In this document: one piece after another, positions 3,245-11,427 of the stretch
Layout of the letters: the number at the start of each line of letters is the position of its first letter
Position numbering within the stretch: the stretch's first letter is position 1
DNA from: a virus
Length of the DNA: 11,436 nucleotides
Strand: one strand, 5' to 3'
Virus genome (UHGV): UHGV-1406243
Position numbers and translations under genes: made by a program
The notes under the pieces: generated by a model
The model's input: only the letters and a program-made list of their open reading frames with translations
What the model was told of the DNA's origin: nothing
The model's database searches: none

Positions 3245-3602
3245 TCTGTCAATTTCTGACCTTAACAGCATTCAGTTTGATGAGAAATTTACCGGGCAGT
3301 TGCTGGTCAATGTGGAGAACGGGCGCATAGTGCGTAATTATCACCTGCCGGATGGTGCAATTGCCGGAAGCGTTGAAGCATTGCTGGAACTGGCGGAACG
3401 TGCGCGACTGATTAAGCCGTCAACGAGCCATCACGATGATGATCTGCATTTTACCGGATGTATGGTGAGTCACTACGAAAACGGCGTCGAGGTATCCTGT
3501 GAACGGCTGCGTGATGATTGCTGTTTCGGCACACTGCCGGAATTTATCGAGTTGCTGACCAGTTGCGGTTATCAGGTCATTCAGGGGGGTAAACATGCGT
3601 GA
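3237..3602 (+). CDS. Hypothetical protein (121 aa)
   Basis: ATG 3237 is preceded by AGGAGG (3225..3230). The 127-aa ORF start at 3219 lacks an RBS. Confidence 0.65.
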   Translation: MHNLSISDLNSIQFDEKFTGQLLVNVENGRIVRNYHLPDGAIAGSVEALLELAERARLIKPSTSHHDDDLHFTGCMVSHYENGVEVSCERLRDDCCFGTLPEFIELLTSCGYQVIQGGKHA

Positions 3603-3861
3603 TGATCGTTTTAATTCCCTGAAACAGGAATGTGATATTTACCACGAAACAATAGACCGCGCATTTCTTGCACTTTCTCACAGTGAAAACATGCTGGAAA
3701 TATTGCGCATATGGCTTGAAACACTTGGCGACAATGAACGCGACAAACAAAAATCAAGAATTGCCACGGCATTAATAACGCTTCTTGAGCCTGTAATAAT
3801 GGAACTGCAAGAAATAGATCTATTGCACGACAGATATAAAGAACAGCACACCGGAGAATAA
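3595..3861 (+). CDS. Hypothetical protein (88 aa)
   Basis: ATG 3595 is preceded by GGGGGG; 8-nt overlap with the upstream gene. Confidence 0.65.
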   Translation: MRDDRFNSLKQECDIYHETIDRAFLALSHSENMLEILRIWLETLGDNERDKQKSRIATALITLLEPVIMELQEIDLLHDRYKEQHTGE

Positions 3862-3866
3862 AAATA

Positions 3867-4166
3867 ATGAAACTTAAATATTCTGGCTTAACTGCCAGTG
3901 GCAACACTCACCCTAAATTTACGCGCGGCGATATTTACCGCGACCAGTACGGCGGCACGGTAATGATTAAGGGCGTGGAAGAACGGCGCGTAACCTACCG
4001 CCGTGAAGGTTACGAATATGATTGCGTGATGCCTGTTTATCAGTTCCGGCGTGATTTTTCTCTGGTACAGACCGCGCCGCATAACGTGTCCACCAGCAAC
4101 GCCAGGGCACGGGCAAACATCCAGAAGCTGAAAACCATGATTAACGGATTCAGGGGTAAAAAATGA
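3867..4166 (+). CDS. Hypothetical protein (99 aa)
   Basis: ATG 3867 is preceded by GGAG. Its stop overlaps the primase start (ATGA at 4163..4166). Confidence 0.7.
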   Translation: MKLKYSGLTASGNTHPKFTRGDIYRDQYGGTVMIKGVEERRVTYRREGYEYDCVMPVYQFRRDFSLVQTAPHNVSTSNARARANIQKLKTMINGFRGKK

Positions 4167-5917
4167 AACTGGCACCGAACGTAAAACAGCAGTCACGCGG
4201 CATAAAACACAAAGAAACAGAAGTCATTATTTTTGCGGGTAGTGATGCCTGGTCACACGCAAAACAATGGCAGGAACATGACGCGCGTATGGCCGGAGAT
4301 AATGAGCCTCCTGTGTGGCTTGGGGAGCAGCAGTTATCCGAACTGGATAAGCTGCAAATTGTGCCGGAAGGCAGAAAATCCGTGCGCATATTCAGGGCCG
4401 GATATCTTGCGCCAGTAATGATAAAGGCGATTGGTCAGAAGCTGGCGGCGGCAGGCGTACAGGATGCAAATTTTTACCCTGATGGTATGCACGGTCAGAA
4501 GGTGGAGAACTGGCGCGAATATCTGGCCCGTGAGCGCCAGAATCTTTCTGATGGTCTGGTCATTGAGCTTCCGGTAAAGCAAAAGGCGCAACTTTCGCAG
4601 ATGGCGGACAGTGAGCGCGCGCAGCTGCTTGCCGATCGCTTTGATGGCGTTTGCGTACATCCTGAAAGTGAAATCGTTCACGTATGGCGCGGCGGGGTAT
4701 GGTGTCCGGTCAGCACAATGGAACTTAGCCGCGAAATGGTGGCGATCTATTCAGAGCACAGGGCCACTTTCAGCAAGCGCGTAATCAATAACGCCGTGGA
4801 AGCGTTAAAAGTTATTGCCGAACCAATGGGCGAGCCGTCCGGCGATTTGTTGCCGTTCGCCAATGGTGCGCTTGACCTGAAAACGGGGGAATTTTCCCCG
4901 CACACGCCGGAGAACTGGATCACCACGCACAACGGCATTGAGTACACGCCACCAGCACCAGGGGAGAACATCCGCGATAACGCGCCAAACTTTCATAAAT
5001 GGCTTGAGCACGCAGCCGGAAAAGACCCGCGCAAGATGATGCGTATATGTGCCGCGCTGTACATGATTATGGCGAACCGGTACGACTGGCAGATGTTTAT
5101 TGAGGCCACCGGAGACGGCGGGAGCGGTAAAAGTACATTCACACACATAGCCAGCCTTCTGGCAGGGAAACAGAACACGGTAAGCGCTGAAATGACATCG
5201 CTTGATGATGCTGGTGGACGTGCGCAGGTTGTCGGGAGTCGTCTTATCGTCCTGGCTGACCAGCCGAAATATACAGGCGAAGGAACGGGCATCAAGAAAA
5301 TCACGGGCGGTGACCCCGTGGAAATTAACCCGAAATACGAAAAGCGTTTCACGGCGGTAATCAGGGCGGTGGTGCTGGCGACCAACAATAACCCGATGAT
5401 ATTCACCGAACGGGCCGGAGGTGTGGCACGTCGTCGCGTGATTTTCCGTTTCGACAATATCGTCAGTGAGGCCGAAAAAGACAGGGAGCTACCGGAAAAG
5501 ATCGCGGCTGAAATCCCTGTCATTATCCGCCGATTGCTGGCGAACTTTACCGACCCTGAGAAGGCACGGGCTTTACTACTGGAACAGCGTGACGGTGATG
5601 AAGCTCTGGCAATAAAGCAACAGACGGATCCGGTTATTGAGTTTTGCCAGTTCCTGAATTTTCTGGAGGAAGCACGCGGCCTGATGATGGGCGGCGGTGG
5701 CGATTCAGTGAAGTACACGACCAGAAACAGCCTTTACCGCGTCTATCTGGCGTTTATGGCGTACGCAGGCAGGAGCAAACCGCTAAACGTAAATGACTTT
5801 GGCAAGGCTATGAAGCCAGCCGCGAAAGTTTACGGACATGAATATATTACGCGGAAAGTTAAGGGAGTAACGCAGACTAACGCAATAACAACAGACGAGT
5901 GCGACGCGTTTTTATAA
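4163..5917 (+). CDS. Replication initiator: P4 alpha-like primase/helicase (D5-type SF3 NTPase domain)
   Basis: 584-aa ORF. Walker A GDGGSGKST and Walker B-like RLIVLADQ are read directly in the C-terminal half. Gene size and the iteron array immediately downstream match satellite Pri-Rep / P4 alpha proteins. The N-terminal primase domain was not confirmed motif by motif. Confidence 0.85.
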   Translation: MKLAPNVKQQSRGIKHKETEVIIFAGSDAWSHAKQWQEHDARMAGDNEPPVWLGEQQLSELDKLQIVPEGRKSVRIFRAGYLAPVMIKAIGQKLAAAGVQDANFYPDGMHGQKVENWREYLARERQNLSDGLVIELPVKQKAQLSQMADSERAQLLADRFDGVCVHPESEIVHVWRGGVWCPVSTMELSREMVAIYSEHRATFSKRVINNAVEALKVIAEPMGEPSGDLLPFANGALDLKTGEFSPHTPENWITTHNGIEYTPPAPGENIRDNAPNFHKWLEHAAGKDPRKMMRICAALYMIMANRYDWQMFIEATGDGGSGKSTFTHIASLLAGKQNTVSAEMTSLDDAGGRAQVVGSRLIVLADQPKYTGEGTGIKKITGGDPVEINPKYEKRFTAVIRAVVLATNNNPMIFTERAGGVARRRVIFRFDNIVSEAEKDRELPEKIAAEIPVIIRRLLANFTDPEKARALLLEQRDGDEALAIKQQTDPVIEFCQFLNFLEEARGLMMGGGGDSVKYTTRNSLYRVYLAFMAYAGRSKPLNVNDFGKAMKPAAKVYGHEYITRKVKGVTQTNAITTDECDAFL

Positions 5918-5929
5918 TTTTTTGTAATT

Positions 5930-6160
5930 GCTGTCTACCCTGTCTACCTGAGTAAAGAAAAATACATTTAATTCAGTGCATTAAGTTAGGTAGATAGCCT
6001 TTTTTTACTGTCTACCCACTATCTACCCTCTCTACCTGATTTTACCTGAATCAGACAGGGAGGTAGACACGGGGTAGATAGTGGATAAAAGCACTCTACC
6101 CCGCTGAAAGCCGCGCCATTACTGGTATGAGGGCCACTAAGGTAGATAAGGTAGACAAGG
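5930..6160. other. Putative origin of replication: iteron array of YCTACC / GGTAGAY motifs with dyad organisation; duplicated at 6379..6609
   Basis: At least 11 copies of the core (T/C)CTACC. Direct copies lie at 5933..6048 (TGTCTACCCTGTCTACCTG, TGTCTACCC, ATCTACCC, TCTACCTG) and inverted copies at 6061..6160 (GGTAGACAC, GGTAGATAG, GGTAGATAAGGTAGACAAGG), centred near 6055. It sits directly downstream of the primase gene. Confidence 0.55.
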
Positions 6161-6205
6161 GGAGGCACAACTCAAAACTTTTTAAACGAGGGGGTAAAAA
6201 TAAAT

Positions 6206-6262
6206 ATGCACACTTCAGGGAAATTTAATAAATCACTCAAAATGACTTTGGCAAGGCTATGA
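6206..6262 (+). pseudogene. Truncated duplicate of the start of the 92-aa gene (18 codons, then stop), created by the tandem duplication
   Basis: Same RBS and first 12 codons (MHTSGKFNKSLK) as the gene at 6655; the reading frame then runs into the duplicated primase 3' fragment and stops. Confidence 0.4.
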
Positions 6263-6654
6263 AGCCAGCCGCGAAAGTTTACGGACATGAATATATTACG
6301 CGGAAAGTTAAGGGAGTAACGCAGACTAACGCAATAACAACAGACGAGTGCGACGCGTTTTTATAATTTTTTGTAATTGCTGTCTACCCTGTCTACCTGA
6401 GTAAAGAAAAATACATTTAATTCAGTGCATTAAGTTAGGTAGATAGCCTTTTTTTACTGTCTACCCACTATCTACCCTCTCTACCTGATTTTACCTGAAT
6501 CAGACAGGGAGGTAGACACGGGGTAGATAGTGGATAAAAGCACTCTACCCCGCTGAAAGCCGCGCCATTACTGGTATGAGGGCCACTAAGGTAGATAAGG
6601 TAGACAAGGGGAGGCACAACTCAAAACTTTTTAAACGAGGGGGTAAAAATAAAT

Positions 6655-6933
6655 ATGCACACTTCAGGGAAATTTAATAAATCACTCAAAAAACGCAGAG
6701 ACAGAACAGAACCGAAATATCGCGCGTTAGACATGACAGAGCACGCTTTAAAGGTGGCAATCAGAACGATAGACCGCCACGCGGGGGAAGGATACGCGAA
6801 AGCACATCCCGAACTGATAAGCGCATTCATGACCACGACGGCGGCAAATTTTGCCACGCTGACAGAGCGGGAGATTGCCGAAGCGGAACAGGTAACAACC
6901 ATCAACGTTAAAACCGGAGAGGTGGAATCATGA
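6655..6933 (+). CDS. Hypothetical protein (92 aa)
   Basis: Strong RBS GAGGGGGT upstream; stop overlaps the ssb start (ATGA). Confidence 0.65.
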   Translation: MHTSGKFNKSLKKRRDRTEPKYRALDMTEHALKVAIRTIDRHAGEGYAKAHPELISAFMTTTAANFATLTEREIAEAEQVTTINVKTGEVES

Positions 6934-7352
6934 CAGCACAGATAGCAGCTTACGGGCGGCTGGTGGACGACCCGCAGGTAAAACAGACCAGCAAGGGCAC
7001 ACCGATGACGCTGGCGCGTATGGCGGTCCCCCTTCCGTGCAGCCAGGCAGATGACGGAACGGCGACGATGTGGTTATCCGTCCTGGCATTTGGCAGACAG
7101 GCCGAAGCACTGGAAAGGCACCGCAAGGGTGAACTCCTGAGCGTGGCGGGTAACATGCAGATCAGCCAGTGGACTGGGCAGAACGGAGAAACGCGGCAGG
7201 GCTGGCAGGTTATCGCAGACAGTGTAATCAGTGCGCGAACGGCGCGACTGGGCGGCAAAAAAGGTCAACAGGGCCAGGCTACTGACGCGCTGAACAGGGC
7301 AAAACAACAGGCGGGGAATGATGATCCGTACGGGGATAACATACCGTTTTAA
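6930..7352 (+). CDS. ssb: Single-stranded DNA-binding protein (short SSB with acidic C-terminal tip)
   Basis: OB-fold pattern comparable to E. coli SSB (IAAYGRLVDDPQVKQT..WLSVLAFGRQAEALERHRKGELLSVAGNMQISQWTGQNGETRQGWQV) and C-terminal DDPYGDNIPF matching the conserved D-D-D-I-P-F tail. Confidence 0.85.
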   Translation: MTAQIAAYGRLVDDPQVKQTSKGTPMTLARMAVPLPCSQADDGTATMWLSVLAFGRQAEALERHRKGELLSVAGNMQISQWTGQNGETRQGWQVIADSVISARTARLGGKKGQQGQATDALNRAKQQAGNDDPYGDNIPF

Positions 7353-7368
7353 GCGACGAGTGACAGAA

Positions 7369-7390
7369 GCCGGAGCAATCCGGCTTTTTT
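7369..7390 (+). terminator. Rho-independent terminator after ssb (GCCGGA-gcaa-TCCGGC + TTTTTT)
   Basis: Hairpin and T-run are read directly. A near-identical hairpin recurs at 9810..9832. Confidence 0.6.
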
Positions 7391-7470
7391 ACGGGTCCTC
7401 CTGGCGGGGTGGGCCTGAACACGGGGCGGGAAGCGCGGAAAAAAGCGCATTTTTGTGATTTTATCGTCAT
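7388..7470 (+). other. Degenerate cos-like sequence (cosQ-like TTTACGGGTCCT, then ACGGGGCGGGAAGCGCGG in place of the lambda cosN core)
   Basis: Shares TTTACGGGTCCT and ACGGGGCGG with the cos at 9830..9900, but the 12-nt cohesive-end core is disrupted. Likely a relic or a divergent site. Confidence 0.35.
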
Positions 7471-7565
7471 CATCATCATGAGCGTAATTTATTGTTTTTA
7501 ATTGTTTTGATGCAAAAAAGATGATGGTTGTGGTTAATTTTCGTTCGACATCTTTGCAGGCAGAT

Positions 7566-7606
7566 AAAAAAGCCCGATAAGGTCAGAGGTGGCTTATCGG
7601 GCTTTT
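7566..7606. terminator. Bidirectional rho-independent terminator (10-bp perfect stem GCCCGATAAG / CTTATCGGGC, A-run upstream, T-run downstream)
   Basis: Read directly: AAAAAAGCCCGATAAGgtcagaggtggCTTATCGGGCTTTTG. Confidence 0.6.
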
Positions 7607-7683
7607 GCATATGAGGCTTTTTGGTGCACTGACACACATGAGCGGGATCATCATTTCATAATTTGCAACACAACTCAATATCA

Positions 7684-7732
7684 TTGCACAAAACGCAATC
7701 CTGATTATAATCAGAGCTGGATGAACATCCAG
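7684..7732 (+). promoter_or_regulatory. Candidate promoter of the capsid operon (-35 TTGCAC 7684..7689, 16-bp spacer, perfect -10 TATAAT 7706..7711) with a 7-bp inverted repeat CTGGATG-AA-CATCCAG (7717..7732) just downstream
   Basis: Hexamers and palindrome are read directly; the location between the upstream terminator and the RBS of the 68-aa gene fits an operator-controlled promoter. Confidence 0.45.
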
Positions 7733-7767
7733 TTATGATTTTTTAAGTCGAAGAGGAATTTCTTACT

Positions 7768-9389: not shown

Positions 9390-9803
9390 ATGGCAACGAA
9401 TGAAAGCGTCATGACGCTACCGCTGGCGAGTAAATTTAAAGCCGAAGCGCGGGCAATGGCTGACAGAGGTTTATCAACCTACGAGGCCGTATATCAACTC
9501 AACAAACTGGAAGAGCAGGACAAGCCGCGCGCTGATGCGATTATGGCGCTTCATGAACATAACGACTATCAGCCGCTGTTACGTGCAATGGCAAACGTGC
9601 CATGTATTAGCGTCGATAATGCTCGTGAAATCCTGAACATGACCATAGAGCAGGAGCGCCCAAAGGTTGCGCCGGAGCTTACCGCAGCCTTTGAAAACTT
9701 TATGGACATGCACAGCCCGAAAGCCGTATCACCCGGCATGGCATACGACGGCAGAAACCAGGGCGATGAAGGCGACGTCGATCGCATACTGAAAACCATC
9801 TGA
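9390..9803 (+). CDS. Hypothetical protein (137 aa), last gene of the capsid module
   Basis: RBS GGGGG upstream; followed by a terminator. No recognisable motif by eye. Confidence 0.7.
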   Translation: MATNESVMTLPLASKFKAEARAMADRGLSTYEAVYQLNKLEEQDKPRADAIMALHEHNDYQPLLRAMANVPCISVDNAREILNMTIEQERPKVAPELTAAFENFMDMHSPKAVSPGMAYDGRNQGDEGDVDRILKTI

Positions 9804-9809
9804 CATAAG

Positions 9810-9832
9810 GCCGGAGAAATCCGGCTTTTTTT
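9810..9832 (+). terminator. Rho-independent terminator (GCCGGA-gaaa-TCCGGC + TTTTTTT), abutting the cosQ-like sequence
   Basis: Read directly; near-identical to the terminator at 7369..7390. Confidence 0.6.
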
Positions 9833-9912
9833 ACGGGTCCTTTCCGGCATATGGACCCGTTACGGGGCGGCGACCTCGCGGGTTTTCGCTATTTATGACG
9901 TTTTTCCGTGAA
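9830..9912 (+). other. Lambda-type cos site: cosQ-like TTTACGGGTCCTTTCCGG, cosN with the 12-nt cohesive-end sequence GGGCGGCGACCT (9864..9875), and a proximal cosB with one R3-like element
   Basis: 40 contiguous bases at 9858..9897 (GTTACGGGGCGGCGACCTCGCGGGTTTTCGCTATTTATGA) match the junction of the lambda right and left ends as I recall it, and TTTACGGGTCCTTTCCGG matches the lambda right-end sequence. It lies about 90 bp upstream of the Nu1-like gene, as in lambda. Confidence 0.8.
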
Positions 9913-9965: not shown

Positions 9966-10400
9966 ATGATTGATAAAGCTTGTTTTGTAAGTCAGCAGGA
10001 AATAGCTGAACATTTCAAGGTTAACAGAACCACTATTCGCGCATGGACCAAACAGGGGATGCCGTATCTTAATGCGGATCGCGGAAAGTCTGGCGGTTAT
10101 CACATCGGGCATACATTGCTTTGGTCTTCAGGTAAAAGCCGTCTTGAGACCATCAGATATCACGTAGAAACCAGTGCGCTGGAAAAAATTATGTTTGCCA
10201 GGCTGCTTTCATCTGAGCGTGACGAGTACTCCAGTGAAGAAACAGAACATCGATTTGATGAAGGTTTGCAGATTTACGGCTATTCACCGGAAGATGTGAG
10301 CAAGGCACGAAATAAAATGGCTGGCTTTCTGGCTGGGTGGCGTCATGCCATAAGCGTTCGCCGTGCCAGCATGGAGCAATCAGCCGATACAGAACAGTAA
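9966..10400 (+). CDS. Terminase small subunit homologue, lambda Nu1-like N-terminal DNA-binding domain with a divergent, shorter C-terminal part
   Basis: VSQQEIAEHFKVNRTTIRAWTKQGMPYLNADRGKSGG aligns with lambda Nu1 VNKKQLADIFGASIRTIQNWQEQGMPVLRGGGKGNEV. 144 aa vs 181 aa; I could not align the C-terminal half to Nu1. Sits directly downstream of the cos site. Confidence 0.8.
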   Translation: MIDKACFVSQQEIAEHFKVNRTTIRAWTKQGMPYLNADRGKSGGYHIGHTLLWSSGKSRLETIRYHVETSALEKIMFARLLSSERDEYSSEETEHRFDEGLQIYGYSPEDVSKARNKMAGFLAGWRHAISVRRASMEQSADTEQ

Positions 10401-10570: not shown

Positions 10571-10654
10571 CCGAAAAATTTTCATAAATAGTGAAAACGC
10601 GCGAGGTCGCCGCCCCGTAACGGGCCATAATTCCAGGAAGGACCCGACGACACC
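10571..10654 (-). other. Second lambda-type cos site in inverted orientation (reverse complement of cosN AGGTCGCCGCCC at 10604..10615, with cosQ-like and proximal cosB flanks)
   Basis: The reverse complement of 10571..10654 reads GGTCCTTCCTGG..GTTACGGGGCGGCGACCTCGCGCGTTTTCACTATTTATGAAAATTTTTCGG, matching the lambda cos junction on both sides of cosN. It is an inverted copy of the cos at 9830..9912. Confidence 0.75.
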
Positions 10655-11298: not shown

Positions 11299-11355
11299 TT
11301 GTTCCACGTTGTTTCATACAGTGCACCGAACGGTGTAGTCACTGGTGTAGTCATT
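11299..11355. repeat. attR-side arm region: TTGTTCCACGTTGTTTCA followed by tandem 12-mers GGTGTAGTCACT / GGTGTAGTCATT (11332..11355); direct copy of 96..161
   Basis: CGGTGTAGTCACTGGTGTAGTCA is read at 11331..11353, identical to 137..159. Confidence 0.5.
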
Positions 11356-11427
11356 TTGCGATTTATGGCACTTTTTGTAGTGCAAATCATTTAATTAAAT
11401 CAATGCGTTAAGTGAAATTAGTTATAT

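Follow-up and report, generated by a model that had tools for sequence, protein, structure and literature searches.

Sequence comparison and structural modeling identified a 140-aa protein, encoded in a viral stretch of 11,436 nucleotides (UHGV-1406243; the whole stretch is called the window here), as a genuine member of the single-stranded-DNA-binding protein (SSB) family, with a conserved OB fold, a variable and apparently disordered linker, and a conserved C-terminal tip. Its sequence marks the window as a Gram-negative PICI, 11 kb in length and of the EcCICFT073 type, and the SSB is probably (at roughly 70%) an accessory replication protein of this island. The gene context favors an SSB that serves the island's own replication, and the protein is probably of use to the island without being essential.

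The assignment of the element was based on comparison with known islands. The window was ∼94% identical to EcCICFT073 over 86% of the window length, and the primases of the two were 99% identical. It was ∼100% identical to sequence in E. coli O18:H1 CFSAN067215, where the island splits tqsA; EcCICFT073, in contrast, has its site between roxA and phoQ. The sequence-only reading had called the gene satellite-encoded, and that description is correct. All but two of the annotated island genes were on the + strand, and small ORFs encoding Icd-like and DUF4222 proteins were among them. The features that define the element were as follows:

127-164 and 11321-11357: 38-nt direct repeat, att sites
185-1399: int, integrase
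1538-1726: alpA
4163..5917, + strand: pri/rep, P4/D5-type primase-helicase (Pfam D5_N, DUF5906, Pox_D5; TIGR01613)
5918..6654, no strand: replication origin, GTCTACC/GGTAGAC iterons in inverted sets around an AT-rich core (repeat analysis)
9865-9876, + strand: exact lambda cosN GGGCGGCGACCT
9966-10400: orf144, in the RppA position, 99% identical to a 144-aa CFT073 protein
10604-10615, − strand: exact lambda cosN GGGCGGCGACCT

[quoted passage not shown] RppA has a length of 144 residues (PMC6739421). Helper induction, replication, and high-frequency transfer have been shown experimentally for EcCICFT073 only (PMC6092414, PMC6739421). The two cosN copies flanked orf144 in inverted orientation, as with the two cos sites described for EcCICFT073.

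A self-BLAST of the window showed that the origin was present twice, within a 449-bp tandem duplication (5791-6239 and 6240-6688). The duplication was absent from an otherwise identical genome, and no contiguous copy of its junction was present among the matches listed in a search of 5426 complete E. coli genomes.

The ssb gene directly followed the origin and a small ORF, orf92. The 140-aa ORF that had been proposed at 6930-7352 was recovered exactly, on the + strand, from an ATG start to a TAA stop, with the protein ending in ...GNDDPYGDNIPF. The gene and its neighborhood comprised the following features:

6655..6933, + strand: orf92, small helical protein of 92 aa, translationally coupled to ssb (ORF list)
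6916..6925, + strand: ribosome binding site of ssb, purine-rich GGAGAGGTGG (read from sequence)
6930..7352, + strand: ssb, 140-aa single-stranded-DNA-binding protein (ORF list, sequence; identical to RefSeq WP_000126681.1)
6930..7238, + strand: OB-fold ssDNA-binding domain, residues 1-103 (AlphaFold, Foldseek, alignment with E. coli SSB)
7239..7319, + strand: linker, residues 104-130, short, basic, and predicted to be disordered (pLDDT, family alignment)
7320..7349, + strand: C-terminal tip DDPYGDNIPF, residues 131-140 (sequence, family alignment)
7366..7390, + strand: intrinsic-terminator-like hairpin AGCCGGA-GCAA-TCCGGCT followed by a T-run (folding of 7345-7400)

The start codon of ssb overlapped the stop codon of orf92 (ATGA, 6930-6933), and purine-rich sequences resembling ribosome binding sites also preceded the ssb ATG in related loci. 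A scan of the + strand for promoter- or terminator-like sites found none between pri and ssb. The ssb gene was the last cistron of a pri-ori-orf92-ssb unit, with the terminator directly after it: the GC-rich hairpin lay 14 bases 3' of the ssb stop codon and, being terminator-like, would close the replication operon. Although a consensus terminator scan did not report the hairpin 3' of ssb, probably owing to a possible extension of its stem into the T-run, direct folding supported it. Folding of positions 7345-7400 gave −23.3 kcal/mol (z = −3.4), and 0 of 200 shuffled sequences were as stable. A 90% copy of this terminator region recurred at 9801-9841. A scan of the window against Rfam at gathering thresholds gave no match. 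On the 3' side of ssb lay a 415-bp noncoding gap, where EcCICFT073 has perC, and then genes for a lambda-E-type major capsid protein and a lambda-D-type decoration protein and three further ORFs.

The product of orf92 was 72% identical to an 85-aa protein at the equivalent position in EcCICFT073. Its sole profile match was PHROG 1231 (function unknown), and searches of Pfam and NCBIfam gave no match. Its AlphaFold model was mediocre (pLDDT of 66), and Foldseek returned no match with an E value below 7.8. The family was a narrow one of E. coli, Shigella, and Citrobacter.

The SSB assignment was examined with profile, structure, and alignment methods. The ssb product scored 55.9 bits against Pfam PF00436 (cutoff, 26; E = 4.9e-15) and 59.4 bits against TIGR00621 (cutoff, 53.95), and it matched PHROG 44 ("single strand DNA binding protein") at E = 3e-37. 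A profile search that could point to a non-SSB fold thus pointed to SSB with all three collections (Pfam, TIGR, and PHROG). Sequence comparison with solved structures returned 26 distinct SSBs and nothing else, the best being 1z9f (E = 3.9e-11). By tblastn, the SSB annotated in E. coli CFSAN067215 matched the window protein at 100%. With 37 family members as input, AlphaFold gave a model with the five-strand-plus-helix OB topology over residues 1 to 100 (block-mean pLDDT of 78 to 92). Residues 104 to 140 were modeled at a pLDDT of <50, with a low-confidence helix at residues 116 to 127. The best 50 matches of the model in a Foldseek search of the PDB were all bacterial SSBs (target-normalized TM scores of 0.65 to 0.82). 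The OB fold that the sequence-only reading had assigned to the protein was therefore upheld by passage of both the PF00436 and the TIGR00621 thresholds, by the 26 solved SSBs, and by these 50 structural matches. In the family alignment, the linker was the variable, indel-rich, cassette-like part of the protein. Binding of ssDNA, tetramer formation, and partner binding would follow from membership in the family. The protein is presumably a homotetramer, since each chain carries one OB fold.

Next, the window SSB was aligned with the E. coli chromosomal SSB (178 aa; PDB 1EQQ/1EYG), using a reference sequence identical to that of 1EQQ chain A. The two proteins have a single N-terminal OB fold in common and were 29% identical; at 140 aa, the window protein is indeed short, as had been said of it. 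Three of the four aromatic residues that stack on ssDNA in E. coli SSB were kept: W54, F60, and W88 correspond to W48, F54, and W81 of the window protein, and these were invariant in the satellite family. The fourth, W40, was replaced by Gln39. H55, a tetramer interface residue of E. coli SSB, was replaced by Leu49, a change that says little about tetramer formation, and a 5-residue stretch just before the W54 equivalent (in the L23 loop) was missing. The linkers differed as well, with ∼27 residues of basic character in the window SSB versus ∼55 residues rich in Gly, Gln, and Pro in E. coli SSB. In both proteins, a disordered linker (predicted for the window SSB) is followed by D-x-I-P-F with an aromatic residue at −7, and the window tip has fewer acidic residues.

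The best match among solved structures, the Thermotoga maritima SSB (1Z9F; about 141 to 153 aa), is of similar length and also has a short linker. It is, however, a cellular housekeeping SSB from an unrelated phylum, and the likeness reflects shared family membership only. A much closer relative was the SSB of EcCICFT073 (WP_000126698.1; 136 aa), which was 72% identical to the window SSB. EcCICFT073 shares with the window the order pri, ori, small ORF, ssb and the ATGA coupling, and its SSB matches the window SSB in OB fold and in tip (DDPYGDDIPF). It differs in having another linker cassette and in having Asp at −4, where the window SSB has Asn.

The C terminus of SSB had been singled out as a canonical acidic tip. 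In the tails of 120 relatives, D-x-[IV]-P-F was nearly always present in full-length members, with N, G, D, E, or S at position −4; other tip alleles included DDIPF, DEIPF, and DGIPF. In the family alignment, D136, P139, and F140 were invariant and I138 was nearly invariant. In relatives from other genera, the C terminus consisted of an acidic stretch followed by P-F. The window protein does end in DDPYGDNIPF, as read from the sequence, and this is a tip of the SSB type. The word "canonical" is fair but slightly generous for this allele. The window tip (G-D-N-I-P-F) has I-P-F, Asp at −5, and an aromatic residue at −7, as in E. coli DFDDDIPF, but Asn and Gly replace the Asp residues that E. coli has at −4 and −6, and the acidity of the window tip is reduced accordingly. 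With these two substitutions, the partner affinity of the window tip may differ from that of the E. coli tip.

The distribution of the gene was surveyed in bacterial, phage, and plasmid collections. With the gene alone as a blastn query, the ssb family was found in 1819 of the 5426 complete E. coli genomes (about a third). A single genome carried as many as six copies, and nearly all copies were chromosomal. When 50,697 phage records were searched with tblastn, no match exceeded 32% identity, and no enterobacterial phage was matched at E ≤ 1e-5. Given this maximum of 32% identity, a recent capture of ssb from a known phage was rejected. Within this set of phage records, the ssb clade looks like a satellite/island lineage.

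Plasmid records gave a similar picture. Only a handful of records in PLSDB carried the ssb family, and one match above 80% identity was a 4.9-Mb record, evidently a chromosome. A 22.9-kb record from Klebsiella pneumoniae carried int, antA, genes for DUF4222 and Icd-like proteins, a primase-helicase gene, a small ORF, ssb, and perC, and it looks like a circularized island. A 10.6-kb Enterobacter record held a truncated ssb relative. A relationship to plasmid SSBs was rejected, the PLSDB matches being few and those inspected being chromosome- or island-like. Conjugative plasmid SSBs (F Ssb and its relatives) are extra SSBs of mobile elements that have a host-like tip, are dispensable, and can substitute for the host SSB. 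They are close homologues of the chromosomal SSB, are encoded in the leading region, and are expressed upon entry of single-stranded DNA. The satellite family, in contrast, is distant from the host SSB and adjoins a theta-type replicase and an origin.

The linkage of ssb to a replicase extended beyond E. coli. A scan of GTDB with one genome per species yielded 17 Enterobacterales loci and two oddly labeled records, and a distantly related integrase lay 4 to 10 kb upstream of ssb in all but one of the loci. The large ORF directly 5' of ssb encoded a primase-helicase in 10 of 10 loci examined in other Enterobacterales, and a primase-helicase was likewise found 5' of ssb in E. coli and Shigella islands and in the circular Klebsiella element. 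Four replicase architectures were distinguished: (i) D5_N, DUF5906, and Pox_D5, as in the window (with Toprim in L018); (ii) DUF927 alone; (iii) Zn-ribbon, Toprim, and DUF927; and (iv) Zn-ribbon, Toprim, and DUF5906. In E. coli and Shigella islands in which a DUF927-type helicase replaced the D5/P4 type, the replicase gene was followed directly by ssb and then by genes for ProQ/FinO-like and PerC proteins. The window SSB was 82% identical to an SSB adjoining a DUF927 helicase, yet it was 72% identical to the EcCICFT073 SSB despite the near identity of the primases. SSB alleles thus reassort independently of the replicase. This independent shuffling argues for host proteins, and not a given island replicase, as the targets of the conserved tip. 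Since the clade is absent from sequenced phages and reassorts freely among the four replicase architectures, it marks the PICI replication module cleanly, and satellite-finding tools could make use of it.

A role in island replication would proceed as follows. A lambdoid helper would induce the island, and a rightward transcript would cover pri, the origin, orf92, and ssb and end at the hairpin, such that SSB production would coincide with induction and replication of the island. SSB would then coat the ssDNA exposed by the island primase-helicase during opening of the iteron origin and fork movement. The D-x-I-P-F tip would dock host proteins that interact with SSB, such as Pol III chi, PriA, and DnaG, and the host replisome would thereby work on satellite DNA while helper and satellite replication strain the host SSB pool. 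We infer that the partners of the tip are host proteins and not the island replicase, since four unrelated replicase architectures are all served by this kind of SSB and tip.

Some points weigh against this role. The host has an SSB of its own, which is both essential and abundant, and the window protein departs from it at the W40 and H55 equivalents and at −4 and −6 of the tip. A pri-ori segment of EcCICFT073 reportedly enables a plasmid to replicate in DH5alpha (PMC6092414), and the SSB thus seems dispensable for initiation. A 2023 survey of Gram-negative PICIs placed Primase, SSB, and DUF5906 in a "Replication" zone because these genes colocalize with mapped origins (PMC10111431). The window protein is already named SSB in RefSeq, and SSB is already listed as a PICI replication component. 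No functional experiment on the window SSB or on any PICI SSB was found in the searchable literature, including PMC6092414 and PMC6739421 (with supplements), PMC10530653, and PMC10085698. Satellites of the EcCICFT073 type carry a primase-helicase, an origin, and an SSB of their own, a replication set that fits reliance on the host replisome, and not that of the helper, for DNA synthesis. In this setting, ssb is a routine component, and its significance lies mainly in correct annotation.

The conserved tip is close to the host motif, and the family, with no close relative in the 50,697 phage records, looks satellite-associated. Both observations would also suit a competitor or decoy that mainly uses its tip to titrate the host partners of SSB or that takes the place of host SSB on helper DNA; helper replication or host repair/SOS would then be handicapped, rather than satellite replication being served. 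PICIs do interfere with their helpers (PMC6092414, PMC6739421). The known interference factor, however, is RppA, which acts on TerS; its expression had no effect on phage replication, and its deletion restored lambda plaques, with titers nearly as high as those in an island-free host (PMC6739421). The pBAD18 clones used for lambda interference in that study begin at c1499, the capsid gene, and apparently did not include ssb (PMC6739421). Moreover, ssb is tied to the replicase/ori module and not to the interference or late zone. We therefore regard competition as rather unlikely.

A related proposal would make the satellite SSB clade a specialized hijacking factor instead of a spare SSB. It starts from the lack of a close relative among sequenced phages and from the finding that the clade travels with every replicase type. 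If it were true, the host-like tip, divergent OB fold, and short basic linker might preferentially capture host replisome and repair partners onto satellite DNA. The island would then out-replicate a lambdoid helper that encodes no such protein, or it would blunt host nucleases and SSB-sensing immunity. We consider this idea unlikely as well.

Mobile-element SSBs have been linked to defense sensing and to plasmid establishment. By analogy with the SSBs of plasmid leading regions, the window SSB could shield satellite intermediates from nucleases or could act as a decoy or trigger for immunity that senses SSB or ssDNA. Many islands have accessory genes (ProQ/FinO-like and PerC) after ssb, marking a spot at which cargo accumulates. 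Satellites, however, enter cells as double-stranded cos DNA and not as single strands, and no defense genes were evident in the window by Pfam, NCBIfam, or PHROG. A simpler explanation is available for the tight coupling of ssb to the replicase and origin, and an antidefense role appears improbable.

Even less probable is a role as the cognate partner of a single-strand annealing protein. The model for such a role is the SSB of HK620, a virus of E. coli, which stimulates Sak4; the C-terminal tails of phage SSBs can mediate cooperation with recombinases (PMC5928155). Searches of the window with Pfam, NCBIfam, and PHROGs revealed no RecT, Erf, Sak, Sak4, or Rad52-like gene, and no annealing-protein gene was listed in the related islands examined. 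The gene coupled to ssb, orf92, encodes a helical protein of 92 aa without a fold match, and no Escherichia or Salmonella phage was among the tblastn matches at E ≤ 1e-5, which further sets the window SSB apart from that of HK620.

Finally, truncated or fused ssb variants do occur in databases, but a decaying passenger gene with no current function is extremely improbable for the window ssb, in which the OB fold and tip are conserved and the ribosome binding site and translational coupling are intact, and whose family occurs in 1819 of the 5426 complete E. coli genomes. Pairwise dN/dS values of ssb against relatives from E. coli, E. albertii, Leclercia, Buttiauxella, Pectobacterium, and Rosenbergiella were 0.11 to 0.21. 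On these values, a pseudogene was rejected; ssb is under purifying selection in E. coli and across the other genera.

The window contains a perfect 449-bp tandem duplication (5791-6239 and 6240-6688). The duplicated unit runs from the final 127 nt of the primase gene through the complete iteron origin into orf92, of which it includes the first 34 nt; because the duplication takes in the entire origin, the window carries two identical origins. The otherwise identical island of E. coli O18:H1 strain CFSAN067215, in contrast, has a single copy of the unit. When a 101-nt probe across the duplication junction was used, the contiguous junction was absent among the listed E. coli genomes matched, and the probe instead matched these genomes as two pieces ~450 bp apart. 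The duplication may reflect rare natural variation, an artefact of assembly, or an edit, and the doubled origin might change replication or incompatibility.

Two further differences from the CFSAN067215 island were located. At the 3' end of the integrase gene (1313-1328), 16 unrelated bases stand in place of 258 bp of CFSAN067215, comprising the last ~100 nt of int and ~156 nt of intergenic DNA. The C-terminal ~28 residues of the window integrase therefore differ from those of CFSAN067215, and the protein is 404 rather than 409 aa long. The RVYNHSRY motif, which is probably the catalytic-Tyr motif, sits ahead of the breakpoint. At 3631/3632, a clean loss of 193 bp takes out the greater part of a small gene (WP_135801352.1, 77 aa) and joins its start to the next gene, resulting in an 88-aa ORF (3595-3861).

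The gene that begins in the duplicated unit, orf92 (6655-6933, + strand), is translationally coupled to ssb, and the two genes are kept together in the model island EcCICFT073, where orf92 identity is 72%. The orf92 family is narrow (E. coli, Shigella, and Citrobacter; PHROG 1231), and no match to orf92 was found in Pfam or NCBIfam. Its predicted structure is a helical bundle of low confidence, for which no structural match was found. Islands with a DUF927-type replicase have a different, larger ORF at the coupled position. Among the compared loci (L003-L031), these replicases share 50 to 62% identity with the first ~160 residues of the window primase (4163-5917; PHROG 2850 region) but differ in their remaining domains. 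This sequence pattern suggests that a common N-terminal module has been swapped onto different helicase cores; perhaps the module functions in origin or iteron binding.

Downstream of ssb, a terminator-like hairpin region (7361-7399) has a second copy just after orf137 (9801-9841), with 90% identity over ~40 nt. Two operons apparently end in the same terminator module. The 415 bp between ssb and the capsid operon (7353-7767) contain no convincing ORF, and an Rfam scan of the window, this interval included, gave no match. In EcCICFT073, a gene for a PerC-family regulator occupies this position, as do ProQ/FinO-like plus PerC genes in other islands. In the window, the interval resembles an unfilled cargo slot.

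The RppA gene (9966-10400), whose product is 99% identical to the EcCICFT073 protein, is bracketed by two oppositely oriented cosN copies:

9865-9876, + strand, exact copy of lambda cosN (GGGCGGCGACCT), within the inverted repeat 9834-9898 / 10582-10646
10604-10615, - strand, exact copy of lambda cosN (GGGCGGCGACCT), within the same inverted repeat

The layout of this pair agrees with that of cos1/cos2 in published descriptions of EcCICFT073 and points to helpers of the lambda/phi80 type.

The few plasmid-database records with a relative of ssb include two from other genera. In the E. cloacae record (OW969629.1, 10.6 kb), a truncated SSB relative comes after a large ORF. The Klebsiella pneumoniae record (NZ_CP033626.1, 22.9 kb), deposited as a non-mobilizable plasmid, has an island architecture (int, HTH, antA, DUF4222, Icd-like, primase-helicase, small ORF, ssb, and perC). 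It may represent a circular or concatemeric satellite form that was assembled as a plasmid, and it has a terminal redundancy of ~4 kb.
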